DNA from: an uncultured bacterium
Lineage (GTDB): Bacteria > Hydrothermota > UBA3073 > NMUJ01 > CBEVQO01
Length of the DNA stretch: 64,000 bases
NCBI GenBank assembly: GCA_965552055.1
Contig: CBEVQO010000001.1
Span: forward strand, 288,001 to 352,000
Reading direction: 5' to 3'
Shown: piece by piece, positions 36,286 to 57,545 of the stretch
Position numbering within the stretch: position 1 is the first letter of the stretch
How the letters are laid out: each line of letters opens with the position of its first letter
The notes under the pieces: generated by a model
Seen by the model: the letters and a program-made list of their open reading frames with translations, nothing else
What the model was told of the DNA's origin: nothing
The model's database searches: none
Program-made: the position numbers and the translations under genes

Positions 36286-37101
36286 ATGAAAGAATTATTA
36301 ACAATTTTGAAGGAAGATTTAGACACGCAAAGGAAAATATTCGGATTGTTGCAGAAGATGACAAAACTGATGGAAGATAAGGTGAAAAATGTATACGCAA
36401 TCGAAAAGTCGCTATCAGAAATGGAGAAATTGGTGAAAAAGATGAGAGAAAGCGAGATTAAGAAAAAATTACAGGAATTTATCGAAAAAGAAGGAGAAAA
36501 ATTGCGAAGTTTAAAGAATGAATTAAAATTGAAGCTGTTTACACAGTTAAAGGAAAAATTGCAAAAGGGAGGATTAAATTTAAAAGGCCAATATCCCAAT
36601 TTGTACTGTGGGATTTTTACATTGAAAATAGATTTTGAGAGAGGGGCTGTGAGATTGCTAATAGGACCCGAAGAAGTATCGAAATTGCAGTTAAATCCCG
36701 ATAATGTTGCTGATTATATTTTGAAATATATGAAGGAATTAAAGGAAAGGGAATTTGATGCATCTAAATTTTATAATCTTTTGCGTCAGGCATACAGGAG
36801 ATATGTTTTGTTGAATAATATGCAGGATGGTGATAGAGCACCCATTGTTGGTGTGTATAATGAATTTGTGTTATTAAACCAGCCAAAAAGTTTCTTTATA
36901 GAGCCAAAGAGGGAGAACTTTAAGCCTTATCCCCGTTTATTTTTCGCATATGACCTTTATAGACTCAGACGGACACAGTTTAAAGATAAGATAAATTTGA
37001 TAGTCGCTACATTGCAGGCAACATCCGATCAGACAAAGTATATGTATATTTTTGATACAGAAGAGTCAGGTACAAGGTATTCTTACATTATCGTAAGATG
37101 A
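36286..37101 (+). CDS. Hypothetical protein
   Basis: 271-aa ORF coupled between bamA and tsaD. Confidence 0.7.
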   Translation: MKELLTILKEDLDTQRKIFGLLQKMTKLMEDKVKNVYAIEKSLSEMEKLVKKMRESEIKKKLQEFIEKEGEKLRSLKNELKLKLFTQLKEKLQKGGLNLKGQYPNLYCGIFTLKIDFERGAVRLLIGPEEVSKLQLNPDNVADYILKYMKELKEREFDASKFYNLLRQAYRRYVLLNNMQDGDRAPIVGVYNEFVLLNQPKSFFIEPKRENFKPYPRLFFAYDLYRLRRTQFKDKINLIVATLQATSDQTKYMYIFDTEESGTRYSYIIVR

Positions 37102-39168: not shown

Positions 39169-41862
39169 TTATGAATGGAAAAGTTCTTCTCGAAGTATTT
39201 TTACACTTTCTTTGAATATATTGGGCATCTGTATTCCGAAATATTTCTTTATATATTCATCTATTTCTTTGTGTGCACTCTTTATCAGTGCGATGTCTTT
39301 TGAAGTTATATGCCATGTCCCGTGTGTCAGCCTTCCTAAGTTTCTTATGTCTCGGAGAGGTTCTAATACATCTTTTTCTATTTTTAAAAATTCCTTGATT
39401 TTTTCCGTTCTTTCATCGTCAGGATGCTCCGCGCACCATTTTTCTAATTTTTCTATTTTTTTAGGAAATCTTTTTTCTTCTTTGGTAAGCTTTATTCCTA
39501 TTTCTTCCAGAAAGCATTTTATTATATTTTCGTTTATAGCGAACAGCTCCATAACTGCTTCTGTGTTTTCATCTCTATCTATGTAAATCTCTGCAATGTC
39601 TTTCATCAATTTTATCAATACTTTTTTATTTTCATTAGATGCTGTTAATGTTTCTTCAAGGTTTTCGAATTTCTGTGCGATTTCAGGCTCTTTTTCTTTC
39701 AACCTTTCGAATCTTTCCAATGCTGCCCTTATGTTGAAGTCCCATAATATCTGTAATATCATGAGTATTTCTTTTGCCCATTTCTGATGTCTGAATGGTG
39801 AATTGTCTATCTCTTCTTTTGCTGGTGCGAACAGGCATTTATCAAGTAATCTTTCTATTCTTTCTTTTGCTCTATTTTGCAATATTTCTCTGAAATAATT
39901 TATCTCCCTTGGTTCCCCATCTTCACCTTCTTTTGGTTTTTCTCTTGATATATAATAAAATCTTGTATTTTCGTCCAGGAATTCCATTGCAAGGGTGAAG
40001 TAAGTTGCTGGTGCTCCTGCTGCTACCTGAATGCATTTGCACGGGTATTTTTTTAATTCTTTTGCATGTTCTTTGCTGAATTTCTTCATCCATTCTGACA
40101 TTTTATCGTAATCCGCTGGATTTTCCCTTATTTTTATTATTTCCGTTTCTATGTTAAAATTCTTCTCTATAAAGTTCTTAGTGATATTTGCAAGAAATAT
40201 CGTATCCTGTCTGTTTTTCTCTCTATCTTTTTGATCCGTTGCAAGGAGAAATATCTTTTTAAGAGTGAACTTATCATTCAGCAGTTTTATAAGTGGGGTT
40301 ATCAGCGGGAATTTTATTCTTTTTACGAGAAATCTTTCTCTTTCTCTGGTATCCCGTTTTACGAGTTCCACTTCTATTCCATCTGTGATTATCATATTGT
40401 TTTCGATTTTTGTTTCTCTTTCTATTTCCCGCTGGAGTATTTCTGTTGCTTCTCTGAAATTTATGAATTTTCTACTCAATTCTCTCACCTCTGTATCTGA
40501 GAAAAGGACTATATCCGAGTTTCCGAGTGTGTAAAGCAGGCATGCTTCTTCTTTTGCTGGCTTTGCATATATTTCTCCTGCTTCATTGATTTTTGTAATC
40601 ACTACATCCATTTCTTCCCCCTTTTTATATTTTAGACGCGAATATAAATTAGCTTCTTTCCCATTTATATCGATTATTGTTTCTCTGTATTCTGAAAATT
40701 TTACTTTTGCCTTATAAATTTTACTTTTCCCTTCTTTTAGTTCTTTTATCATTTGTGCCTTTTCAATCGATACTATTGCGGTATTGTTATTTTCATTGAT
40801 TCTTTCCACGAACACATCTATTTTTTCTTTATTTTCAAACTTATCTGCTTCCCAGTTTTTTTCTATCACCTTGCATACATATCCTCCATTGAGTAACAGG
40901 ATTGTTTTTTTATCTTTTTTACATACGATTGCTTTGTTTATTGATTTTGGCAGTGGGAATGTTTCATCTTCGAAATATTTTTCCACACAATATTTTGGCA
41001 TTTTAAGGTACAGCGATGTTCCTCTTTTCTCCAGTATTTGCACCGTTAATGTGTCGCCATTTTCCGGTCTGTCACATACTTTCTCTTTGCTTCTCGGCAA
41101 AAAGCAATCGACTCCCATTATCTGCACAATTGAGCCTGCTTCCTTTACCTCTTTAACTATACCGGTAAAAATGGCATCGCGGTTATCCTGCCATGTCTGA
41201 ATTATCTTTGCTTTGTTTACAGATACCTTTGCCCTCTTATTCCTGTAATCAATATAATCTATGAAAACAGGGATATGATCATATGGTGTTGATTCTAATT
41301 CTTCGTATGTTTCTCCTATTATTCCTGTTGGCAATTCGACTTCGCACAAATGTCCTGTTTTTATTATCCTTCCATAGACAATAATTCCCTCGCGGATTCG
41401 CGGAATCTTTTCAATTTCTTCCTTTATCCGGGGTAATTCTTCAATTGATGTTATTGAGCGTTTTTTCATCTCAAACTCATTTATTAATACCGAGTATCTG
41501 TATATATCTGCTCTGAGCAAATTGATGGCTTCCTTTGTCTCCTCCATGCTTCTTTTAAACTCCATTTTTCTTTCTCGATCAAGTGTATAGCCCTCTCTCT
41601 TATAAAATTCCAGTTCCTTCCTGAAAGCTTGCCTTATTTCTATGAGGTCTTCTATCATCTTTTTTCTTTCTTCTTTCAATTCTCTTATGAGCTCGTTGTA
41701 TCCCCTTATTAATTCTGCTCTTTTTGCTTTTCTTCTATAATAATATGCTTCTCTTTGTTTAATCCTGTAATATGTTCTTCTTCTTTTTTCTTCTTCCTTT
41801 TTTCTTTCGAGTATCTTTTTTGCTATAAATGCACCTACGCCTATTGCAATCCATATCCACAT
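39169..41862 (-). CDS. CRISPR-associated fusion: TM anchor, coiled coil, tandem S1-like OB folds, Csm6-like CARF/HEPN
   Basis: MWIWIAIGVGAFIA; K/E/R heptads; S1-like GIVKEVKEAGSIVQIMGVDCFLPRS; C-terminal ~460 aa colinear with 42726-44078 (LGNSDI, LATDQ, DTIF, NPADYD, AGAPA, RNLGRLTHG). Confidence 0.8.
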   Translation of the reverse strand: MWIWIAIGVGAFIAKKILERKKEEEKRRRTYYRIKQREAYYYRRKAKRAELIRGYNELIRELKEERKKMIEDLIEIRQAFRKELEFYKREGYTLDRERKMEFKRSMEETKEAINLLRADIYRYSVLINEFEMKKRSITSIEELPRIKEEIEKIPRIREGIIVYGRIIKTGHLCEVELPTGIIGETYEELESTPYDHIPVFIDYIDYRNKRAKVSVNKAKIIQTWQDNRDAIFTGIVKEVKEAGSIVQIMGVDCFLPRSKEKVCDRPENGDTLTVQILEKRGTSLYLKMPKYCVEKYFEDETFPLPKSINKAIVCKKDKKTILLLNGGYVCKVIEKNWEADKFENKEKIDVFVERINENNNTAIVSIEKAQMIKELKEGKSKIYKAKVKFSEYRETIIDINGKEANLYSRLKYKKGEEMDVVITKINEAGEIYAKPAKEEACLLYTLGNSDIVLFSDTEVRELSRKFINFREATEILQREIERETKIENNMIITDGIEVELVKRDTRERERFLVKRIKFPLITPLIKLLNDKFTLKKIFLLATDQKDREKNRQDTIFLANITKNFIEKNFNIETEIIKIRENPADYDKMSEWMKKFSKEHAKELKKYPCKCIQVAAGAPATYFTLAMEFLDENTRFYYISREKPKEGEDGEPREINYFREILQNRAKERIERLLDKCLFAPAKEEIDNSPFRHQKWAKEILMILQILWDFNIRAALERFERLKEKEPEIAQKFENLEETLTASNENKKVLIKLMKDIAEIYIDRDENTEAVMELFAINENIIKCFLEEIGIKLTKEEKRFPKKIEKLEKWCAEHPDDERTEKIKEFLKIEKDVLEPLRDIRNLGRLTHGTWHITSKDIALIKSAHKEIDEYIKKYFGIQMPNIFKESVKILREELFHS

Positions 41863-42275
41863 TATTTTTCCGGAATTAATTTAATTACTTCGTTGATGTT
41901 AATGTAAAATTCGGCTATTTTATCATTTATTTCTTTCAATTTATCATCGGTTAATGCGTTCATTTCTCTTAGTTCCTCTTTTACTTTTTCATATTTGCTT
42001 ATGAATTTTTCCAGTTCCTTTATCTGATTGATGAGTTCTTTTCTTCTTTCTCTTTTTTCCTCGAGATATGCTTTAGCCATCTTTACCACTGCATCTACTT
42101 TTTCTTTCCATATTTCTTTTTCTATTTCGGCTTTTTCATAGATGTGTCTTATTTTTAATCTTTCTCTTTCGGTTAGTTCTTTTTCTTTTCTATAAGCGAA
42201 ATATTCTGCAGCAGCTCTGCATGCCTCTATTATTGCCAGTCCCATTGCTCCTATTGTCGTTAGTATCGGTATCAT
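41862..42275 (-). CDS. Small coiled-coil protein with hydrophobic N-terminal helix (CRISPR-linked, unknown)
   Basis: 137 aa; start and stop each overlap a neighbour by one base. Confidence 0.8.
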   Translation of the reverse strand: MIPILTTIGAMGLAIIEACRAAAEYFAYRKEKELTERERLKIRHIYEKAEIEKEIWKEKVDAVVKMAKAYLEEKRERRKELINQIKELEKFISKYEKVKEELREMNALTDDKLKEINDKIAEFYININEVIKLIPEK

Positions 42276-42742
42276 CAGCCTGTTTTTAAAGCAAAAGGAG
42301 TATATGTTAATTGCCTTGAAATTTCAAGTCTATGACCCAATATCTCTGTTATTTTTTCGCCCACCTCTTTTATCTTATCTAATTCATAACCGTTTTTAAT
42401 CATTTCGAGATGCACAGATGTGTATTTATGTAGTATTTCGTCTATTGACTGTATTGTCTTTAAAATTGCTTCTCTTGTTTCCTTTGCATCTTCTCTCTGC
42501 ATTTTCAGATATTTCAGATTGAACTCTATTTGTTCTCGCAAAGCCGTGAGCTCTGTTCTCATTTTTTCTCTCTCTGCCTCAAGTCGCATTTTCAGCTGAT
42601 TTGTCCTTTCCTGTTCAATCTTCCACTCCATGAATTTAACAGCGCAATCTTTCATGGCATCTATCAGTTCGGTAATTATGAAAATTCGGCTCAAAATTTT
42701 ACCGGTTACAACCTTGACAGGGGGTTTAGGAGATTTCTTCAT
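42275..42742 (-). CDS. Small coiled-coil protein (CRISPR-linked, unknown)
   Basis: 155 aa; RBS GGAGGT inside the csm6-like gene end; overlapping start and stop. Confidence 0.8.
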   Translation of the reverse strand: MKKSPKPPVKVVTGKILSRIFIITELIDAMKDCAVKFMEWKIEQERTNQLKMRLEAEREKMRTELTALREQIEFNLKYLKMQREDAKETREAILKTIQSIDEILHKYTSVHLEMIKNGYELDKIKEVGEKITEILGHRLEISRQLTYTPFALKTG

Positions 42743-44078
42743 AGCACCTCCTTATTTCATAAAAGGGATTTTCACCCGTTGAAACATCAACATGCGAAAG
42801 AAGTATTTTTATATCTTTAAACAACTCTTTTATGCCCTTTCCGTAATGCTTTTCAATATCCTCCTTATCTATTCCCTCATATCCATGTGCACCTATTGAT
42901 TTATGCCTTAATGACACCAGTTTATGTAGATTATCAAGAATAGATTCGACTTCCGGATTTACTTTGCCTTCGGTATTTAAGTTCTTAAAAATACATTTCA
43001 GTAGATAAAGGGAAATCGTTTCCAGCCTTAATTTTTCCTTTTCTATTATCTCTTTACATTTTTCCTTGCATTCTTCGATAAATTTATCGTCCTCCAATGG
43101 CAATCCCCAGTATTTATACATTATCAGCCTGTATATCATCTGTATGAATGTGTAAAGTCGTGTTAACATGTCGATATATTCTCCTTTCTTCTCTTTTAGT
43201 TGCATATTGTAATATAATTCAGTCAGTTTCTTTTTAAAACCTGTTATGTCTTTTTTCAACAATTCATCTATTTCTACCTTGTGTCTTATGAGGATATCCT
43301 GAAGATGTCCTTTTTCGTCCTTTATTGCCATTTCCAGATATTCCTTTGCTTTTTCAAACAGGAATAATTCTCTATAGTAAAGGTAATTATAAACATTACT
43401 TTTATCAATATGCATTGCTCCATAAAAATCATAATGTTCGATTAGTGCTTTTGTATTCATTTTTGCGAATGTCTGAGAAATCTCTTTCCCCAACCTTAAA
43501 TTTATGGGTATTGATTCACCTTTTGTATCTATTTCTTTTGAGTAATAAATTTCGACCTTTTCTCCGAAGTATTTTACTGCCTGAAAAGCGAGAGCAAAAT
43601 TACATGCAGGTGTGCCACCTGTAATCGATACAAAAATTCTATCATAAGATTTATGCAATCCTTTCTCCATAAATTTTTTCATCCTGCCGTCATAATAATC
43701 TAGCATCAAATCATAAATGTTGGGTTGAAGTGTGATACAATCAGAAATATGAATTGTCCCCAATTTTCTAAACCCTTTTTCTTTTCTCTTTTTTTCATCC
43801 AAAAATTTTTTGATTATCTGTGCATAAAATATCGTATCTTTCTTTTTAAACTTTTCATCTTCCTGATCCGTTGCAAACATTACGATATCAAGAATCTCCG
43901 TACGCTTGAAAATTTCTTTAAGTACAGGTTCTATAATTGGTAATTTTATTTTAGTTTTGAACTTCTCATAGTTAAGTAATAAATATTCGCCTTTTTCCCT
44001 TGGTACCTGAGGCAAAGAAGGGATATCTATTAAGATATCATTATTACCTATATTTATGAATAAGACATCTTTACCCAT
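42726..44078 (-). CDS. csm6: Csm6-like CARF-HEPN ancillary ribonuclease
   Basis: CARF-type IGNNDI, FATDQ, SITGGTPA; HEPN-type RHKSIGAHG; directly after csm5. Confidence 0.75.
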   Translation of the reverse strand: MGKDVLFINIGNNDILIDIPSLPQVPREKGEYLLLNYEKFKTKIKLPIIEPVLKEIFKRTEILDIVMFATDQEDEKFKKKDTIFYAQIIKKFLDEKKRKEKGFRKLGTIHISDCITLQPNIYDLMLDYYDGRMKKFMEKGLHKSYDRIFVSITGGTPACNFALAFQAVKYFGEKVEIYYSKEIDTKGESIPINLRLGKEISQTFAKMNTKALIEHYDFYGAMHIDKSNVYNYLYYRELFLFEKAKEYLEMAIKDEKGHLQDILIRHKVEIDELLKKDITGFKKKLTELYYNMQLKEKKGEYIDMLTRLYTFIQMIYRLIMYKYWGLPLEDDKFIEECKEKCKEIIEKEKLRLETISLYLLKCIFKNLNTEGKVNPEVESILDNLHKLVSLRHKSIGAHGYEGIDKEDIEKHYGKGIKELFKDIKILLSHVDVSTGENPFYEIRRCYEEIS

Positions 44079-45130
44079 CCCGGTGGTATTACATTTTCTC
44101 CTTTCATGATGACTGCACGGGTATCGGGCAGATATTTTTTCAATCTCCTTTTAGTCCAGTATTTTGTATTTTGATAATTTTCCCACTGCCTTAAAATATC
44201 CTTATCATCTTTTATCAACATAATAACCGTTTGACACCAGAATGTTTTACCAAATCCTATTCTACCTATGCATTCGTTTTGCTTTAAACTTTTCATCTTA
44301 TATAAGAGGTCTTCATAAAAATCTATCAAACTTCTTATAGGATTATCTTCTTTTGCTTTCTTTATCTCATTTATTTCCATTTTTATGAATTCTTCGAAGA
44401 ATTCGTTTACTATTTTAAAAATGTTCTTCAAGTCTGTGAACACATCTTTTAAATTTTTGTTTAATATCGGTATATTTAAAAGATTTATTTCGGAATTGAT
44501 TTTTGTATTTTCAACTATTGCTTCGCATGGCTGTGGTACTCCTTTCACCCTCTTTGCAATGTATAATCTTCTTACATTGAAAATTTTAATATTTTTTTCT
44601 TCGATAAATTCACTATCTTTTATAAGCAAATTTTTAAATGGGTCTCTATGAGGGTCGCCAAAAATTCTTCTATTGAGCTCAGAAAATTCATATTTTGCTC
44701 TTTTCTTCCATATATTCCTGATTTCCTTTTTTAACAATGAGATATTGTTTTTCAAATAATGATATGCAACGCATGTTCTTATCATTCCTTTTATGGAAGT
44801 TCCGGGCATATAATATTTTCCGTCGGTCTTTATATACGATGAAATTTCACCACTTATTTCATCATCTGCAGGTATCTCCCTTTCTATAACATCATCAAAT
44901 CTTACCCCATGCTTCCGGGCAAATCTTTTGATATCTTTCCCAGATTTTATCTCCCCTGTTTTTACTTCTGATATATATTCCTCGATAATTCCCTTTTCCG
45001 AAAGTTTTTCCATGAGTTTACTCTCGGATATTATTCTCACCTTTCCGCTTTCACAAATGTAATCTATGGAGTGATATTTCTGTTCACTTCCTATATGTAC
45101 AGGGCTTAATGTTTCGATAACCAGTTTCAT
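44054..45130 (-). CDS. csm5: Type III-A RAMP Csm5
   Basis: TLSPVHIGS, YMPGTSIKGMIRT, DPFKNL.IKDS, RIGFG, PGWV. Confidence 0.9.
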   Translation of the reverse strand: MKLVIETLSPVHIGSEQKYHSIDYICESGKVRIISESKLMEKLSEKGIIEEYISEVKTGEIKSGKDIKRFARKHGVRFDDVIEREIPADDEISGEISSYIKTDGKYYMPGTSIKGMIRTCVAYHYLKNNISLLKKEIRNIWKKRAKYEFSELNRRIFGDPHRDPFKNLLIKDSEFIEEKNIKIFNVRRLYIAKRVKGVPQPCEAIVENTKINSEINLLNIPILNKNLKDVFTDLKNIFKIVNEFFEEFIKMEINEIKKAKEDNPIRSLIDFYEDLLYKMKSLKQNECIGRIGFGKTFWCQTVIMLIKDDKDILRQWENYQNTKYWTKRRLKKYLPDTRAVIMKGENVIPPGWVKMSYS

Positions 45131-46104
45131 TTTACACCGAATTTTATTCCAAAATTTATACCATAATGATAGACAGGATGCTCCAGTTTCCCTGTATCTA
45201 TTTTATACAATTCGCCATGGGGGATGTTTTTAATAACGCTTCCTTCCTTTATCATCATTATTCTTGGTTTCAAATATCCAGTGCCTCCTATTGATGTTAT
45301 CCATCCTCCTCTTGGTATTATCTGATATGATATGAAATCGCAATTCTTAAGGTCAGCGTCAGATGGATATACGAGTGATAGATTTACACAATATTCCCCA
45401 TCTTTTATATTTAACTCAATTTCTCCTTCTTCAATTTCAAACCTTCCTGCTCCTGATGAGCGCTCAGCACCTATTCCCTCTTCAGCCATAAGCTCAAAAT
45501 AGTAAGTTTCGTCACCCAGATAAAGGAAATAAAAGAAAGGTCTAACATCTTTGTAATTTATACCATAAAGAAATGTCTGATAAAAAGGAACAGAACCCCT
45601 CTGTAGCCTGTCAATTCCGACACTTACTTCATCGTGGAATACAAAAATCTCAATCCCGTATTCGGGTAGCTCATCTTCCATAACACCAAACTTACCAAAG
45701 GTTACCCTGCCAAAAGGTGCGGAAGTAAGAAGTGTATCATCAAGTAATTTGACATTGTTCAATATTTCTTCAAAAAGTTTCAGAGATACATATTTTACTC
45801 TTCTTAATCTTTTTTTCATCTCTTCTTCATCATCTGTTTTTTCTGGTTTTATAAAAGGTCTTGGTAAGAAATAAATTTCCTTATCGTTGATTTGAATTCC
45901 GAGGAAAGCCGAAGAGAGCAAGAACTTGCCTTTTAGCGTTTTTTCTATTATTTCCTCTGCTTTATTTTTGTCCAATTTTGCAACAGAATTTATGAGTGCA
46001 GAATAAAGTGTATCCGAAGGGATATAATCGATTTCGTATTTCGGCATACCTATTTTTAGTTTGATACCTGTTTTACTCTTTAATTTTATCGCTTTAAACT
46101 TCAT
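45127..46104 (-). CDS. csm4: Type III-A RAMP Csm4
   Basis: PSDTLYSAL, LSSAF, IDR, GIGAERSSGAGRF, EGSV, HPVYHYG. Confidence 0.9.
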   Translation of the reverse strand: MKFKAIKLKSKTGIKLKIGMPKYEIDYIPSDTLYSALINSVAKLDKNKAEEIIEKTLKGKFLLSSAFLGIQINDKEIYFLPRPFIKPEKTDDEEEMKKRLRRVKYVSLKLFEEILNNVKLLDDTLLTSAPFGRVTFGKFGVMEDELPEYGIEIFVFHDEVSVGIDRLQRGSVPFYQTFLYGINYKDVRPFFYFLYLGDETYYFELMAEEGIGAERSSGAGRFEIEEGEIELNIKDGEYCVNLSLVYPSDADLKNCDFISYQIIPRGGWITSIGGTGYLKPRIMMIKEGSVIKNIPHGELYKIDTGKLEHPVYHYGINFGIKFGVK

Positions 46105-47038
46105 TTTTGAATCTCTCCCATATTTCATCTATCTTTTCTTTTAACTCTTCAACACTCTTTAATGTGTCGATTTCGACTGGTTTTTCTTTTGTTCTATAAT
46201 GTTTTTGTGTTTTGATTTTTACTTTTATTTCTTTGAATTTAACCTTTCCATATCCTCTTGAGCCCGAGCCTCCCAGATAATCGTCTTCCAGCAATCCCAT
46301 TGCTGTTATAAATGCGGTGAAGAAATTTTTGTCTCTATCGGTGTCATAGACATTAAAAACGAAATCTCCTTTAAATTCTGCACCTGCAGGTACTCTCTCG
46401 AAGTGCCTTGGATTTGCAGCAGATGTCAATCTATCAATTGTGTTTTCGAATTTCGCCTCGGTATAAAGGTTGTCTTCCGCTAGCTCGGGGAAGTCCTTTT
46501 TGAACTTCTCTTCATCGAGCAAAGCATCCCTAGCATATAGGCGTGTTGGCTCAGAAGAAGAATGCTCAGCAGGTCTACCAAAAGTTACGCATATTTCACA
46601 ATCATCCCTCGGGCAAATATGTATAAATACACCTCCCTGCTCATGCCAGTTATACTTTTCTTTCAATTCTTTTTTTATATTTTCTAATTCTTTTTCAATT
46701 TTCTCTTTTTCTCTTTCTTTGCTTTTTCTCTCTTCTGATTTTCTTGGGTCATTTTTTTCTTGTTGTTTAAGCATTTTTATTTCTTTCTCTAATTTTTTCT
46801 TTTCTTCTTCCTTTTCCCTGTAAGGTTTAAGAGGCTTTAAATCTTTTTCTTTTCTTTCGAGCAGGCATCTCATTTTACCTTTTATTGAGCTACCAGGGAT
46901 AAAGGGCACTCCTCTTGGATCTTTTATAACAGGATTATCGAGTCCTCCTATTTCCAGTGTCTCTTTTCCAGCCCCTATTGACAAACCCGTTTTCGCCTCT
47001 AAAACATACTCTATTATTATCTTGCCCAATAAACGCAT
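46094..47038 (-). CDS. csm3: Type III-A backbone Csm3 (with charged insertion)
   Basis: TGLSIG, GGLDNPV, IPGSSIKGKMR, KFENTIDR, NPR..ERVPAG, YLGGSGSRGYG. Confidence 0.95.
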   Translation of the reverse strand: MRLLGKIIIEYVLEAKTGLSIGAGKETLEIGGLDNPVIKDPRGVPFIPGSSIKGKMRCLLERKEKDLKPLKPYREKEEEKKKLEKEIKMLKQQEKNDPRKSEERKSKEREKEKIEKELENIKKELKEKYNWHEQGGVFIHICPRDDCEICVTFGRPAEHSSSEPTRLYARDALLDEEKFKKDFPELAEDNLYTEAKFENTIDRLTSAANPRHFERVPAGAEFKGDFVFNVYDTDRDKNFFTAFITAMGLLEDDYLGGSGSRGYGKVKFKEIKVKIKTQKHYRTKEKPVEIDTLKSVEELKEKIDEIWERFKNEV

Positions 47039-47039
47039 A

Positions 47040-47405
47040 TCACCCCCTTGAGTTAAAATATTTGTGATAGGCTATTATGCCCTCAAATAGCTGTTTGAAT
47101 TTTTCCACATTTGATTCTGTTTTGATACTTTGTATTACTTCTTCAAGCGCTTCGCAGAAATCTCCAAGTTCTTTCTGTCTGGCTCCTGCGTATGCCAATC
47201 TATATCTCATTAAAGCGAGTTCCTCGGGTTTATTAATCGTCATTATTTTGCTATAAATGCTTCTTAATTGATGCATTGAAACTTTTTTCAGCTTTTCTGC
47301 GCACTTCCTTATCCTGTCTACAAATTCATTTCCTTCTAATGAGAGAATATCAGCGAGAATTTGTTTATAGGGATTTTTGTCCTTACTTGCTTTTCTCTCA
47401 TTCAT
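47040..47405 (-). CDS. csm2: Type III-A small subunit Csm2
   Basis: QLRSIY, LAYAGAR, FEGIIAYHKY. Confidence 0.92.
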   Translation of the reverse strand: MNERKASKDKNPYKQILADILSLEGNEFVDRIRKCAEKLKKVSMHQLRSIYSKIMTINKPEELALMRYRLAYAGARQKELGDFCEALEEVIQSIKTESNVEKFKQLFEGIIAYHKYFNSRG

Positions 47406-49590: not shown

Positions 49591-49703
49591 GAATTTTTTC
49601 AAAAAATTTTTCATCTCATTATTATATACGAGTGAGAGTGCAAAAATGTGACAAAAAATTTTCAAAAATTTCAAAAGAACAGGATTCGATGACAAAACTT
49701 AAA

Positions 49704-49733
49704 GTCCCAATCCCTTATAAATGGACTCAAAAC
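49704..49733 (-). repeat. Highly degenerate trailer CRISPR repeat
   Basis: GTCCCAATCCCTTATAAATGGACTCAAAAC, 23/30 identical to consensus; only 8 nt from the next repeat. Confidence 0.75.
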
Positions 49734-49741
49734 CTAAACAA

Positions 49742-52266
49742 GTTTCAATCCCTTATAGCAGGCTCGAAACTATCCGAGAGATTGCTTGGAAGTGTGGTGG
49801 TATGCTTTAAAGTTTCAATCCCTTATAGGTAGGCTCGAAACAGGTAAATAAAAGGAGGCGACTATGAACTTAAAAAATTTGTTTCAATCCCTTATAGGTA
49901 GGCTCGAAACATATTCGATTGGATATGATGTTGTCATAGCTCGACAAAGTTTCAATCCCTTATAGGTAGGCTCGAAACTTTCTTATCGGATTATTGGTTT
50001 ATTGGCTTTTATCAAGTTTCAATCCCTTATAGGTAGGCTCGAAACTTTTACTCGCCTCGCCAATTCGCAGTCGATTTAGATGTTTCAATCCCTTATAGGT
50101 AGGCTCGAAACTACCCATCTGGGAGAGGAAACGCTTGAAGAAGATTTGTTTCAATCCCTTATAGGTAGGCTCGAAACCAAGACCAAGTTGTCCTCGCCAC
50201 GCTCCACACTTCTTAGTTTCAATCCCTTATAGGTAGGCTCGAAACTTTGACATCGATTTCTGCCTTTTTGATGATTTTGTCGTTTCAATCCCTTATAGGT
50301 AGGCTCGAAACGAGATACTCAGGGAAGAATAATAGGAGCAAAGTCTCGTTTCAATCCCTTATAGGTAGGCTCGAAACCTTAAATTTAATGGTAGGAACAT
50401 TAAGAAGTATATAAGTTTCAATCCCTTATAGGTAGGCTCGAAACCGGCCGTGAAGCGTATCATGGATGACCTCGTGCCTTACGTTTCAATCCCTTATAGG
50501 TAGGCTCGAAACGCTGAAAAGCCCCGTTGAAGGTGACATCAGAGAAGGTGTGTTTCAATCCCTTATAGGTAGGCTCGAAACCTAAATGGAGCAAAGCCAG
50601 CCTCGTAATCGGGCTGTGGTTTCAATCCCTTATAGGTAGGCTCGAAACTCTTGTGGCGTGAATGTATCTCTGACATAATATTCATCGTTTCAATCCCTTA
50701 TAGGTAGGCTCGAAACTATGCTTGTGACGAGTTTGAAAGACAATTCCCTTACAGGTGTTTCAATCCCTTATAGGTAGGCTCGAAACGAATTACTATACAG
50801 GCGGAATACAGAATAATGCATTAGTTTCAATCCCTTATAGGTAGGCTCGAAACTTAGCAGGTGCAACGGCAACAGGCACCGCAGGTGTTATAGTTTCAAT
50901 CCCTTATAGGTAGGCTCGAAACTCCGTTAGTCTGCAAAGGCATGAACGCAGATTTTGAGTTTCAATCCCTTATAGGTAGGCTCGAAACTCGCTTTTTCGA
51001 CATTTACCAGGTCAAAATTTTCGATGTTTCAATCCCTTATAGGTAGGCTCGAAACTTTTATATTAAAAAGTATAATTTAAATATTAATCCTGTGTTTCAA
51101 TCCCTTATAGGTAGGCTCGAAACGGGATAGGTATATAGCCACACTTCCTTATTTCCCCATGTTTCAATCCCTTATAGGTAGGCTCGAAACGGATAGGAAA
51201 GCGGCGCCGTTGATTTTCAAAAAGGAGTTTCAATCCCTTATAGGTAGGCTCGAAACGATCCTCGATTCGATCATTTTCGTGTCCGCAAATGGTTTCAATC
51301 CCTTATAGGTAGGCTCGAAACTGGAGGTGGTATGTTGAAGTTGTTTTTAAAAGAACAATGTTTCAATCCCTTATAGGTAGGCTCGAAACGTTAATGAGGA
51401 GGATTGATGTATCGATTGTTGACATATGTTTCAATCCCTTATAGGTAGGCTCGAAACATCAATTTTAAGAGATTTGCCTGGTGGTCCAATAGGCCTTTCA
51501 ATCCCTTATAGGTAGGCTCGAAACGAGTTTTATATTAAATGCACAAAATGCAATAAAATACTTTCAATCCCTTATAGGTAGGCTCGAAACTGTCGAAGCC
51601 TCTTCTTCTTGTTGAAGTTGATGAAATTTCTTTCAATCCCTTATAGGTAGGCTCGAAACGGGAAAAATATCGTCAGTATTTGCGTGCTAATGTCGTTCTT
51701 TCAATCCCTTATAGGTAGGCTCGAAACAAAATTTTCAAAAGAAGAAATTGAACTTGCTAAAAACTTTCAATCCCTTATAGGTAGGCTCGAAACTAGATTT
51801 GCCATCATCTTCGGGCAGGGGACTCAATGTCTTTCAATCCCTTATAGGTAGGCTCGAAACGAAAATTGAGGAGATTGAATGGAGTGAGAAAGAATTCTTT
51901 CAATCCCTTATAGGTAGGCTCGAAACCTATTAAGAGGTTTAGGTAGTTTGGTTTGTAATCGTTCTTTCAATCCCTTATAGGTAGGCTCGAAACATTCCAT
52001 GCGTCTGCTTCTTCACGAGTAGTGTTGCCAACTTTCAATCCCTTATAGGTAGGCTCGAAACGTGGTTTTACAGGTGGAATACATGATATAATCGAAGCTT
52101 TCAATCCCTTATAGGTAGGCTCGAAACAGAGTGGATAGAGGAATTCTTTGCCGAACCTGTATTAACTTTCAATCCCTTATAGGTAGGCTCGAAACGAAAC
52201 AGCGAAGAATTGTATTACGATGGGCATAGGATAACGCTTTCAATCCCTTATAGGTAGGCTCGAAAC
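49742..52266 (-). CRISPR. CRISPR array, 38 repeats and 37 spacers; repeat in crRNA sense GTTTCGAGCCTACCTATAAGGGATTGAAAC/G
   Basis: 30-bp direct repeats with ~35-41 bp unique spacers; degenerate copies at left end, leader at right, ATTGAAAN 3' end indicates minus-strand transcription. Confidence 0.98.
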
Positions 52267-53587: not shown

Positions 53588-56500
53588 ATGATGCGTGTGT
53601 TGTTGTTATTTTTTATTATAGGCGGGTTATATTCGGTTGGTTCAGCGGATACTATTACGGTAATAGACGGCGGTAAGGAGGCAAATTATCATGTCTCCGA
53701 TAATTTCTACAATTACAGCCTGCTCGAATACATATATCCCAAGGATTCTCTTACATCTGGTATCATAACTCGAATATGGTTTAAGCATAATGATTTTACT
53801 TACACGAAAACCAATCAGGTGATTTATATGGGGCATACGAATAAAAGTCATTTTGAGAGTAAGACCGACTGGATACCTTCAACCGAGTTAACACAGGTTT
53901 ACAGTGGCTCTTTTAATATAACAAATGGATGGGTTGAAATTACTCTGGATAATCCATTTACATATTATGGCTCAAAGAATCTTGTTATTATGATTGATAA
54001 CAATCAGGGGTCTTACCCTGGTAGTGACCGCAGATGGTATTATGAGAGCGGTTATAGTGCTCGATGCCTTGATTATCGCAGTGACGGAACCAACCCTGAC
54101 CCTGCGAATCCACCTGAAGCAAACTATTTACGCGATGAACTGGCGAACTTAAGAATAGAAATCAGTTACCCTGATACAAACATAGGAGTAATTGGATTTG
54201 TTTTCGCATCTTATTATCAAAAAAATTCCACAGATTCTATTGGACTTATTGTAAAGAATTTCGGAAATCATTCTCAAACTAATTTTTATGTATATTATGA
54301 CTTCAAAAGCGACCCGGGACGAGATTCCATGCAATATACATCGACACTGGCTCCTCAATCGGTTGATACAGTATTTATAGAATGGACTCCACAAACAGCA
54401 GGTGAGGACACTGTTTTTGGCTGGACTGAACTCGATGGCGATACATGGGTTCATGATGATACTTCAAAGAGCTGGATAAAGATTTTAGATGAAGGCGTAT
54501 TTGTGGATGAAGGATTTGAGAGAACGACTTTCCCGCCCACTGGCTGGACAACCCAAATAGTGAATAACACTGGATGGACCGACCCGGAATGGACAAGGGA
54601 AACATCAGGCAGTAGTCCATCCTGTTCGCCTCATAGTGGTGTAGCTATGGCAAAATTTAACTCCTATTCCTGTGACGATGGCGATGAAATGAGACTCATT
54701 ACTTATAGTTTTGATTTAAGCAGTGTATCCAGTTGTAGTCTGACTTTCTGGTGGTTTCACTGGTATAGCAATTCATTTTACAGAGATTCATTAATCATTG
54801 AGATTGACACAAATTCCAGTGGTAGTTGGATATGTTTAGATAGATTTCAGGCAGGAACTAAAGGTTCTGGTACAAACAGCTGGAAGAAGCGAGGAATTGA
54901 CATCAGCTCTTATTGGACACAAGAAAGTGCGTATCGCGATAACAGGTAAAAGCGATTACGATTATAACATCTATATTGATGATGTTAAGGTATTTAAGGT
55001 AGAAGTATTTAATAATGATGTTGGTATCATAGGATTTGTTAAGTCACAAAATTACATGGTGGGCAAATCCGATTCAATTGGACTTATAATAAAGAACTTC
55101 GGGAATAATTCCCAAAATGATTTCTGGGTGCACTACGATTTAAAAATTGACCCAGGTAGGGATTCTCTTCATTACACATCTACATTGAATTCTCAACAAA
55201 TTGATACAGTATTTATTGACTGGACGCCTCAGACTGCTGGTAGCGATTCTATTATAGGCTGGACAGTATTATCCGGGGATGAAAATACAGGGAATGATAC
55301 ATCAAAAACTTCTGTCAATATCCTTGAATCGGGAACTATACTGACAGAAGGATTTGAGAGCTCCACCTTTCCACCTGAAGGCTGGTGTATGTTTGGCTGG
55401 GATGAAGGAGTAGAGGTTGATGACCCCTGGCAGCGCTCTGATTTTAATCCACATGGTGGTGGATGGTGTGCCCGCACCAAATATGATATGAGTGGTGGCA
55501 CAGATTACTGGCTTGTATCTAAAAGAATTGACCTATCTGGATATGACATTATAACACTTAAATTCTACCATATACCGAAATATAACGATAACGCAAATTA
55601 TCTTAAAATAACAACACAGGCTGACTCAATGGATACAAGTGCATACACTATTCTACATACATTCTATGATAAAGGTACTGATTGGGAGTTATTTGAAATC
55701 GACTTATCAGATTATGCTGGTTGCACAATCTTTATTGCATGGAATGCAAAAGAAGAAAATGATTACGAGTACTGGTATCTTGATGATATTACGATAATTG
55801 CAGAGACAAGCCTTACTCATGATATAAAAATGGTTTCGATAATATCGCCACCTAAATTTGTAATGGAGCAAACTCCTTATATCCCGCGTGCAAAAATCAA
55901 AAATATAGGGAAAAATACAGAGACATTCAAAATCTTTTGTAAAGTTGACTCTTCAGGACATACGATTTTCAAAGACAGCGTTCAGGTCAATAATCTCAAA
56001 CCAGATTCCACAAAGGTTGTGAATTTCAGTTCATGGACACCTGCATCCGATGGAAATACTTATACACTTACTTTCTATACTGCATTATCAAATGACGGCG
56101 ATAAAAGCGATGATACTCTTACTTTGTCGGTTAAAGTTGTTAAACGACTACCTGTTGAGGCAATTAATCCTCTTCACTGGCCAAGTTTTATGCGTGATAT
56201 CGCAAATACAGGGAGAACAGATTGCGTTGGACCCGACACAATAGAATCGTATGCCTCATATTCAACTGGTGGAGCCATTCATTCCTCACCTGTTATAGAT
56301 AGTGATGGTACAGTATATTTTGGCTCTGATGACGGATACCTTTATGCGATGCATCCTGACTTATCGGGATATAAATGGAGATACGAGACACCCGGAGAAG
56401 CCATACGCTCAACCCCAGCAATAGACACAAATGGTAATATTTACTTTGGTTCAAACGATAATTACTTTTATTCTTTAGATTCAAATGGTAACTTCCGATG

Positions 56501-57545
56501 GCGTCATCTTTTAGCCAATCTTTATAATGTAGTTCATCCAGCGGTTATAGGAGATGACCAGAAAATATACATTGGAGCTGGCTCTAATTTTTATGCATTT
56601 AATCCAGATGGCTCAATCGCATGGCAACTTACTGCTCCAACAATAGCAGGAGATATCTCTACAGGAGCAGCACTCCGGGATAGCATCGTATATTTTGGCA
56701 CAACCAATGACCACTATCTTTATGCTGTGTGTAATGGCGTAGTCCTGTGGAAAAAACCATTACCAAGAGGAATAAATTCAACTCCTACTCTCAAAGGCGA
56801 TACAATATTTTTTGCATTGAATGATGGCAAACTTTATGCGATAAGGGACACAGGTGAGGGTTACAAGGATTTATGGGCAGTTCGCATAGACCCGCCTAAA
56901 TCTGGCTGGAGCGATGTCTATTATTCTTCACCTGCTGTTGGGTTTGACCACACAATTTATGTTGGAACGCCTTTCAATCATCTTGTGGCTGTATATCCCG
57001 ATGGTGAAATAAAATGGAAATTTAAAGTTCACGGCAAAGTATGGTCGTCACCTGTAGTTGACAGCAACGGCATAATCTATTTTGGCTCTCATGACGATAC
57101 ACTTTATGCCCTTGAAGATTTGGGCTCATGTGCACAGGTAGTATGGAAATTCGGAACAGGAGGCTCAATACGGAGTGCAGCAGCAATAAGAAACCCACTT
57201 TACTTTACATCCTTAGATGGTAAAATCTATTGTATAAATCCACCCAGTGCTGTTAAATTGAAAGAGAAAACCACACAAAAATTGAACGCTTTCTCACTTC
57301 AAGTTTATCCAAATCCTTCCAATAAAGAAATAATCATTCGATATTCCTGTCCTTACTCCTGTGAAGTTTCACTTAAGATATACGATGTATCAGGGAGATT
57401 GGTGAAAACTCTTGTGAATAGCAAAAAGAAGCCTGGCTCTTATATCATAAAATGCGATAATAAGGAATTTCCGTGCGGAATTTATTTTATCAGAATGCAA
57501 GCAGGAGAATTTCGTGCCACCAAAAAATTACTGCTAATACAATAA
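53588..57545 (+). pseudogene. Large secreted multidomain protein (Ig-like and cleaved-adhesin-like repeats, PQQ-like beta-propeller, T9SS-like C-terminal domain), frameshifted near 54910
   Basis: Signal peptide in 53588-54949; EGFE..FPP.GW repeats in both ORFs; SSP..D.DG.VYFGS.D propeller repeats; VYPNP...KIYDVSGRLV...GIYFI tail. Confidence 0.75.

Follow-up and report, generated by a model that had tools for sequence, protein, structure and literature searches.

Recognition of target RNA activates the cyclase of Cas10 in type III CRISPR systems, and the RNases Csx1 and Csm6 are described as diffusible and non-specific. In the case of TtCsm6, the R-X6-H motif of the HEPN domain is required for activity, and cyclic oligoadenylates (cOA) bind dimers of the CARF domain, bringing the HEPN motifs into line (PMC10897365). 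The present analysis deals with a type III-A locus found in a 64,000 bp stretch (the window) of contig CBEVQO010000001.1 (positions 288,001 to 352,000), from an uncultured bacterium of the phylum Hydrothermota. Two CARF-HEPN proteins are encoded in the locus, a plain Csx1 of 450 amino acids and a fusion of 897 amino acids whose CARF-HEPN unit is preceded by a hydrophobic tip, a helical hairpin and four S1 domains. The fusion is a Csx1/Csm6-type effector with a real, unusual S1 arm that probably serves in targeting, and is found in one species.

Architecture of the 897-amino acid fusion

The C-terminal half of the fusion is matched by the Csx1-type CARF-HEPN model PDLC01795 (Table 1) and carries the HEPN motif RNLGRLTH (R840-H847, at 39322-39345). 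A previous sequence-only reading of the window had named this ORF (open reading frame) a Csm6-like fusion, an assignment borne out by the model match and by the intact R-X6-H motif. The N-terminal half was searched with the profile of a stand-alone protein family (see below), built from nine proteins and residues 1-292 of the fusion and free of sequences of ribosomal protein bS1. This profile aligns to the fusion twice (residues 1-292 and 287-437), so that the S1 pair is duplicated in the fusion; BLASTP likewise matches the two pairs.

An AlphaFold2 model of residues 1-441, based on an alignment of 19 rows of which nine are bS1 fragments (predicted local distance difference test, pLDDT, of 78), displays the hairpin followed by OB folds. 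The third OB fold is poorly resolved and residues 280-347 have a pLDDT below 50. Modelling the whole fusion from its sequence alone gave an unusable result (pLDDT 40.6). A Foldseek search with the N-terminal model ranked bS1 first, a match that is partly circular because bS1 rows sat in the alignment used for modelling. The hairpin was matched by generic helical bundles only, with a best Z of 10.8 where about 13 is meaningful for helices, and a relationship to ESCRT-III, LXG/Lap or translocator proteins is not claimed. The Atlas had no usable match for residues 1-440.

The CARF-HEPN half and the 450-amino acid Csx1

The fusion keeps all eight columns (T, Q, D, T, G, P, R, H) that are invariant in an alignment of six CARF-HEPN members. 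CARF motif I (GNSD) is kept, while motif II reads AAGAP versus TGGTP in the 450-amino acid protein. The fusion thereby lacks the threonine that three of the five other members have in motif II, and the same segment is also variable among unfused members. In a seven-row tree the fused Csx1 is placed (96/96) with a Csx1 encoded by genome G254, which belongs to a different family of the phylum, and not with its 450-amino acid neighbour. Its origin as a local duplicate of the 450-amino acid gene was rejected on this basis, since the grouping with G254 argues against a recent local duplication. The identity to the nearest Csx1 is 25%. As judged from these comparisons, the fused CARF-HEPN is a second, distinct Csx1 lineage of separate origin.

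The 450-amino acid protein is the ordinary csm5-adjacent effector of the locus. Its HEPN motif is intact (RHKSIGAH, R391-H398) and its score is below the TIGR02672 Csm6 cut-off (55 vs 150 bits), making it a Csx1-type protein in the broad sense. A further copy, on a contig as long as that of P0002 (a copy of the fusion, see below), differs at only 4 residues. The PDLC01509 model that identifies it matched three of the 271 other genomes of the phylum, in all three cases at type III-A loci, and none of these three loci has small helical genes or an S1 fusion adjoining csx1. A context search of genome contigs with the 450-amino acid protein gave nothing.

Both CARF-HEPN genes are encoded alongside a Cas10 that is cyclase-competent by the criterion of its GGDD motif, found at residue 507. 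The position expected for the HD motif, whose usual form is LLHD, is occupied by LLYP, and the whole protein contains zero HD dipeptides, in agreement with the previous description of this Cas10 as keeping GGDD without HD. With the HD motif lost and GGDD kept, defence must therefore rely on signalling effectors.

A stand-alone family related to the N-terminal half

A search of residues 1-441 against 1.84 billion representatives retrieved 11 proteins. Besides the fusion itself, these are nine stand-alone proteins of 303-336 amino acids (P0006-P0013 and P0015, from metagenomes and mostly on short contigs) and a 220-amino acid bS1-like fragment, which was excluded from the family alignment. By sequence, the N-terminal half of the fusion is thus also a rare stand-alone family of about 310 amino acids. 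Its nine members comprise a helical, charged region and a pair of S1 domains with which the chain ends; they have no CARF domain and their S1 pair is not duplicated. The N-terminus is hydrophobic in eight of the nine. This combination of a hairpin with domains like D1-D2 of bS1 (its domains 1 and 2) brings to light an undescribed protein family.

The family profile obtained 12 matches in the PDB, of which 11 are bS1 proteins and the other has a single S1 domain. Most alignments cover residues 23-170, corresponding to domains 1-2; the structure matches include the Qbeta replicase complexes 4q7j and 4r71. The first two domains also score highest in all 17 bS1 proteins from phylum loci that were examined and in the host's own bS1. 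Those 17 are the ORFs that look like bS1 from 19 profile-matched loci. The profile matched 239 of 272 genomes of the phylum and, among the matches listed (150 outside the window), only its S1 part was aligned. The family remains distant from bS1 proper, P0007 reaching 37 bits against a cut-off of 524 in the rpsA model, for which the best E value among the 10 family members (the nine and the fusion) is 6e-12. Searches of plasmids by tblastn with the 897-amino acid protein, P0007 and P0011 found only bS1-type partial matches, and a search of phages with P0011 found partial S1 matches only.

PADLOC gave only weak matches to the family, each in one of the 10 members. The profile of Csx21, a protein associated with type III-D systems, matched one of them (E 4e-4) over one S1 domain and did not match the fusion itself. 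A link to PDC-M01B, also weak and in a single member, was discarded: the matches of this profile in the phylum fell on its other end, and the main text of the preprint does not name PDC-M01B.

Integrity of the fusion and variation between strains

The fusion did not arise from mis-assembly of this genome. Its S1/CARF junction (around position 40542) is bridged by contigs from runs X1 (39431-41227) and X2 (40377-41857), which belong to two studies. It is possible that the source sample is one of the two runs; the X2 contig has the same 3-nucleotide insertion as P0002, a 903-amino acid copy of the fusion found in a second assembly, and may not be independent of it. A further X1 contig (41270-42883) covers the end of the 450-amino acid ORF, the two small genes that follow and the start of the fusion.

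P0002 and the fusion are identical at 739 of 742 residues up to the tail and at 64 of 151 thereafter, the tail motif in P0002 being RNKGRMAH. Independent support for the alternative tail comes from one short contig end: a 227-nucleotide contig of run X4 stops fitting at 39640, leaving 29 unaligned letters, within one codon of the swap point at 39639. No second copy of the alternative tail was found in this genome. The difference, as it appears from the two sequences, is taken to reflect recombination that exchanged the nuclease tail between strains. The tails differ yet the catalytic motif is kept in both, which fits a maintained nuclease function.

The two small helical proteins

The genes located between the two CARF-HEPN genes code for helical proteins of 155 and 137 amino acids. 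They are paralogs (26% identity over 109 amino acids, E 6e-8), match no family above cut-off and have at most one hydrophobic segment each. No homolog of either was found outside this species in 60 relatives, 271 other genomes of the phylum or, by tblastn, plasmids, and hence no further case of their occurrence with cas10; two weak matches in the 271 genomes lie inside long frames (727 and 430 amino acids) and were rejected as coiled-coil noise. The 155-amino acid protein, the one of the two that was searched there, has no homolog in a collection of 5.8 billion sequences. Its look-alikes by feature in the Atlas are unnamed bacterial clusters of 162-180 amino acids (score 0.93) and are taken as a lead only. 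Homology of the small proteins with the hairpin of the fusion was not supported (probability 4.7% and 3.2%). Complex prediction for the two proteins with residues 1-300 of the fusion gave 0.78 in three runs and 0.00 in two partner-replaced controls, but also 0.76 in a control with the 155-amino acid protein replaced, and is not used as evidence. The position and composition of the small proteins suggest that they may bind the stalk of the fusion as partner subunits, an assignment to which we give nearly an even chance.

Proposed mode of action and alternative explanations

The reading that we tentatively prefer, at somewhat under an even chance, is that the fusion is a cOA-activated RNase with a layout like that of RNase Y, probably capturing mRNA near the membrane or the ribosome, with the small proteins as partners of its stalk. 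In this HD-less type III-A complex Cas10 would make cOA upon target recognition, switching on two predicted RNases, the plain Csx1 and the fusion. What is known of the family makes activation of these CARF-HEPN proteins by cOA probable; it also suggests that they would act as dimeric RNases and that the outcome would be dormancy or death of the infected cell. The 450-amino acid protein would be soluble and degrade RNA broadly. The short tip and the basic residues next to it would keep the fusion at the inner face of the membrane, its S1 domains would raise the local concentration of single-stranded mRNA at the HEPN site, and the two small proteins would serve as subunits of the stalk. The anatomy of the protein speaks slightly in favour of membrane contact and, to a similar degree, of RNA capture by the S1 domains.

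Several observations weigh against this proposal. The tip is marginal as a membrane-spanning helix, its 14 uncharged residues being fewer than the usual span and its Kyte-Doolittle mean being 1.41 over 19 residues (1.66 over 17). The sequence-only reading of the fusion as anchored is thus upheld as regards the hydrophobic N-terminus and weakened as regards a membrane span. The stand-alone relative P0009 is devoid of a hydrophobic N-terminus. Domains 1 and 2 of bS1 are mainly protein-binding (PMC10931766), so RNA capture is not their best-known role. CARF motif II of the fusion is degraded and, as a consequence, its affinity for cOA may be reduced or absent. Sequence searches with the CARF-HEPN family matched no solved structure that would single out cA4 or cA6 as the activator. 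The 1.84 billion representatives, the phylum genomes, metagenome contigs and plasmids yielded no full fusion from any other species, and consequently there is no comparative signal linking the N-terminal module with CRISPR function. The family alignment (four of the nine stand-alone relatives) found no genomic context in metagenome, genome and viral contigs. Finally, the overlaps of the four genes that follow csm5 point to an operon and not to a complex, because overlap is common in the host genome: 720 of 1412 same-strand neighbour pairs less than 300 nucleotides apart overlap by 1-40 nucleotides, and 36 of 401 overlap runs hold at least four consecutive overlaps, as counted with crude ORF calls starting at the first ATG. 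Of the coupling claimed previously, the single operon stands while the overlaps lose their value as a sign of one complex.

The best match of the S1 pairs is specifically to D1-D2, the ribosome-anchoring part of bS1 (PMC10123108), and Cami1 is a precedent for a CARF effector acting on the ribosome (PMC11229360). The pairs could attach to the uS2 site of the 30S subunit, with the HEPN dimer at the mRNA channel, making the fusion a 30S counterpart of Cami1. In bS1, F5, F9, K43 and F79 contact uS2, Lys43 entering its zinc pocket, and OB2 touches mRNA via K117, F120 and F130 (PMC10123108). Residue F254 of the fusion aligns with F130 and is invariant in the stand-alone family, whose hydrophobic pattern lines up with the N-terminal helix of bS1; the leader of pair 2 has VEKYF there and most stand-alone relatives also have an F-containing leader, with an ambiguous register in each case. 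However, the Lys43 loop is absent from the fusion (in pair 1, LPTGIIG stands opposite LGLKSEG of bS1, and the lysine is missing from pair 2 as well), pair 1 has no phenylalanine at the F5 and F9 positions, the 120-residue stalk ahead of D1 would have to be accommodated, and the bS1 fold match has the circularity mentioned above. With the F130 equivalent kept and the K43 loop lost, ribosome docking is possible and not favoured over plain RNA capture; we regard it as unlikely. A wider scheme would combine docking with the other features of the locus. A heteromeric stalk made of the 155- and 137-amino acid proteins and the hairpin would hang an array of bS1 mimics and a cOA-gated HEPN at the membrane, dock on translating 30S subunits and cut mRNA selectively, with strains retuning the target by swapping tails and the stand-alone family being an undescribed bS1-mimic defence protein. 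Such a class of localized effectors is rather unlikely. 

The arrangement could also have arisen by chance, if an unrelated cassette of three genes (the two helical genes and an S1 protein) landed between two csx1 genes and, in one lineage, was fused to the second. The CARF-HEPN would then be an ordinary Csx1 and everything else a passenger. This would agree with the occurrence in one species only, with the absence of the cassette from the three other type III-A loci that have this Csx1 family, with the lack of CARF in the stand-alone relatives and with the genome-wide frequency of overlaps. Yet two assemblies and contigs from two studies show the fusion uninterrupted and in frame, its S1 pair is internally duplicated, unlike that of the nine relatives, and its 25% identity to the nearest Csx1 indicates that the junction may be old although no frame has decayed, leaving a chance event with a low probability. 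Domains D1-D2 anchor bS1 on the Qbeta replicase and T4 ModB modifies D2 (PMC10931766), which suggests a decoy: the bS1-like pairs would bait phage proteins that bind or modify D1-D2 and provide a second, CRISPR-independent trigger of HEPN, the stand-alone family being an innate defence. The Qbeta replicase complexes among the structure matches and the degraded CARF motif II fit this idea, but identity to bS1 (20-28%) is low for a decoy and no context places the stand-alone family in defence islands, the PADLOC matches being weak and confined each to one member; we find it very unlikely. The same holds for a complex of all four products that would damage the membrane once cOA is bound, the small proteins forming its pore or scaffold. 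The hydrophobic N-termini of the 137- and 897-amino acid proteins, the paralogy of the small helical proteins and the common operon would be compatible with it. However, the 155- and 897-amino acid proteins have no clear 19-residue span, both CARF proteins keep their RNase motifs, the 450-amino acid protein occurs alone elsewhere, and the structure matches are the generic helical bundles that fall below a meaningful Z.

Whether the preferred account of a membrane-proximal, mRNA-capturing RNase or one of its alternatives applies, the locus offers a built-in comparison: a plain and an armed Csx1 share an operon, and two HEPN tails occur naturally on a protein that is otherwise the same. The pair of tails makes the determinants of HEPN specificity directly testable.

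Gene organization of the locus and its genomic neighbourhood

The gene order on the minus strand is cas10-csm2-csm3-csm4-csm5-(450 aa)-(155 aa)-(137 aa)-(897 aa), and the CRISPR array precedes cas10 (Table 1). The five overlapping ORFs that had been listed from csm5 onwards were all recovered on this strand, with successive overlaps of 25, 17, 1 and 1 nucleotides. Scans for promoters and terminators were at chance level (45 vs 42.1 and 6 vs 5.6, respectively).

Table 1. Coordinates in the window of the type III-A locus and of the parts of the 897-amino acid (aa) fusion.
Feature	Position	Strand	Remarks
897-aa fusion	39169..41862	-	hydrophobic tip, helical hairpin, two S1 pairs, CARF-HEPN
Hydrophobic tip, residues 1-14	41821..41862	-	uncharged, followed by basic residues; probable membrane-contact segment
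Helical hairpin, residues 15-135	41458..41820	-	helices 2-93 and 96-135; AlphaFold2 pLDDT 82-94 by block
First tandem S1/OB pair, residues ~146-292	40987..41427	-	most like bS1 domains 1-2
Second tandem S1/OB pair, residues ~293-437	40552..40986	-	internal duplicate of the first; BLASTP E 4e-8 between pairs, family profile E 8e-20
Csx1-type CARF-HEPN, residues 441-897	39172..40542	-	PDLC01795 E 1.8e-20 at 442-834
Strain-variable HEPN tail, residues 743-897	39169..39636	-	from comparison with P0002
137-aa helical protein	41862..42275	-	hydrophobic N-terminal segment, residues 1-19
155-aa helical protein	42275..42742	-	no family over cut-off
450-aa Csx1/Csm6-type CARF-HEPN	42726..44078	-	PADLOC Csx1 PDLC01509 E 1.2e-72, residues 5-445; PF09670
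csm5	44054..45130	-	profile match
csm4	45127..46128	-	profile match
csm3	46094..47038	-	profile matches
csm2	47040..47405	-	profile matches
Cas10/Csm1, 718 aa	47402..49558	-	TIGR02578 E 3.4e-131, over cut-off
CRISPR array	49699..52266	-	upstream of cas10; 37 exact repeats at 49813-52266, spacers of 35-41 nucleotides

The array has degenerate repeat copies on the cas10 side. Its orientation was assigned from the repeat end ATTGAAAC on the minus strand, which we take to be the 5′ tag of the crRNA. The genes cas6 and cas1 are absent from the type III-A locus itself. A locus about 30 kb past the window on the same contig encodes Cas6 and a Cas1 of type I-B, and the array next to them shares its repeat with that of the window; type III systems usually use Cas6 in trans (PMC12669027). 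The type I-B locus, with Cas6, Cas3, Cas4 and Cas1, is found at G000:C1 369900-379000 (L004:5908-15000); its Cas8-like subunit is apparently split between ORFs of 626 and 117 amino acids, the former without NCBIfam match. About 50 kb before the window (L037:6236-14387, G000:C1) lies a type III-B (Cmr) locus that is complete and encodes a TIGR02710 CARF protein of its own. The host genome carries I-B, III-A and III-B systems, and the second Cas10, encoded by the III-B locus, could also switch on the effectors studied here. A third array, with 64 copies of the repeat found in the window, is present at G000:C6:20638-25027; visual inspection of the ORFs in the 16 kb around it revealed no cas gene.

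Csm3 of the window has a long charged insertion (approximately residues 65-130) that divides its profile match. At a type III-A locus of genome G027, Csm2 (L032:5717-6268) has around 90 extra N-terminal residues that look cold-shock/OB-like by eye, Pfam detecting only Csm2 at 97-180; this is possibly another addition of an OB fold to a locus of this type. In the same genome a 675-amino acid DUF3800-domain protein is encoded right after csx1 of a type III-A locus (L032:10524-12551). Elsewhere in the window, a 271-amino acid coiled-coil protein without Pfam match (36286-37101) is coupled between genes labelled by eye as BamA-like and tsaD-like. Two overlapping ORFs of surface-protein type (453 and 882 amino acids, 53588-57545) share a 194-nucleotide repeat, and are possibly one gene frameshifted near 54900-54950. 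Two near-identical tandem genes coding for 141 and 150 amino acids were seen at L004:3244-4118; they presumably resemble small proteins of the aspartyl-protease type.

Comparison with described systems

An S1-bearing CARF-HEPN protein is not among the effectors described in the excerpts of PMC11229360, PMC12669027 and PMC6546367, nor did literature listings or the main text of the PADLOC preprint show one. The sequence-only reading had found the architecture unlike that of described effectors, and the effector lists excerpted from PMC11229360 and PMC12669027, where none has S1 together with CARF-HEPN, agree with it. The closest relatives are Csx1/Csm6 (PDLC01509, PDLC01795, with TtCsm6 as the studied example), which share the order CARF then HEPN with R-X6-H, the location after csm5 and the company of a cyclase-type Cas10. 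The fusion differs from them by 440 extra N-terminal residues (tip, hairpin and four S1 domains) and by the two preceding helical genes of no known family. The motif II lysine of TtCsm6 is apparently proline across this subfamily, motifs being mapped onto TtCsm6 by analogy and not by alignment, which makes self-inactivation by cOA cleavage doubtful. An operational rule for Csx1/Csm6 is the absence of a transmembrane segment (PMC11229360), to be compared with the short, marginal tip of the fusion. Csm6-2 has the order CARF-HEPN-CARF-HEPN, whereas the fusion has one CARF-HEPN unit and an N-terminal half of S1 type.

Cami1 (CARF-RelE) is likewise a cOA-activated RNase, aimed at translation (PMC11229360), but the fusion has HEPN and no RelE match, and any targeting would be via its bS1-like domains. 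Cam3 provides a precedent for a non-CARF accessory gene adjoining an effector, cami1 (PMC11229360); it has six predicted membrane helices in contrast to at most one short hydrophobic segment in the small proteins, and the operon studied here is without cami1. If the preferred account holds, the RNA decay set off by cOA can be directed to particular places or substrates, like that caused by Cami1 but by another route.

Cam1, Cam2 and Csx23 resemble the fusion in being type III ancillary proteins with a hydrophobic segment at the N-terminus, Cam1 reportedly consisting of membrane helices and CARF with no nuclease domain. The three act on the membrane and have no nuclease (PMC11229360), whereas the fusion has a short tip and an intact HEPN. 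Domains D1-D2 of bS1 are the best sequence and fold match of each S1 pair, linker helix included; the fusion differs from bS1 by scores far under the rpsA cut-off, a duplicated D1-D2 unit, the absence of D3-D6 and the loss of the Lys43 loop, and a separate bS1 is encoded by the genome. In RNase Y the parts follow one another in the same way, namely membrane anchor, coiled coil, RNA-binding domain and nuclease, and it also has small partners, RicA, RicF and RicT (PMC11321564). In the fusion, S1 domains take the place of KH and CARF-HEPN that of HD; neither it nor its relatives match the RNase Y family, and the resemblance is one of analogy.

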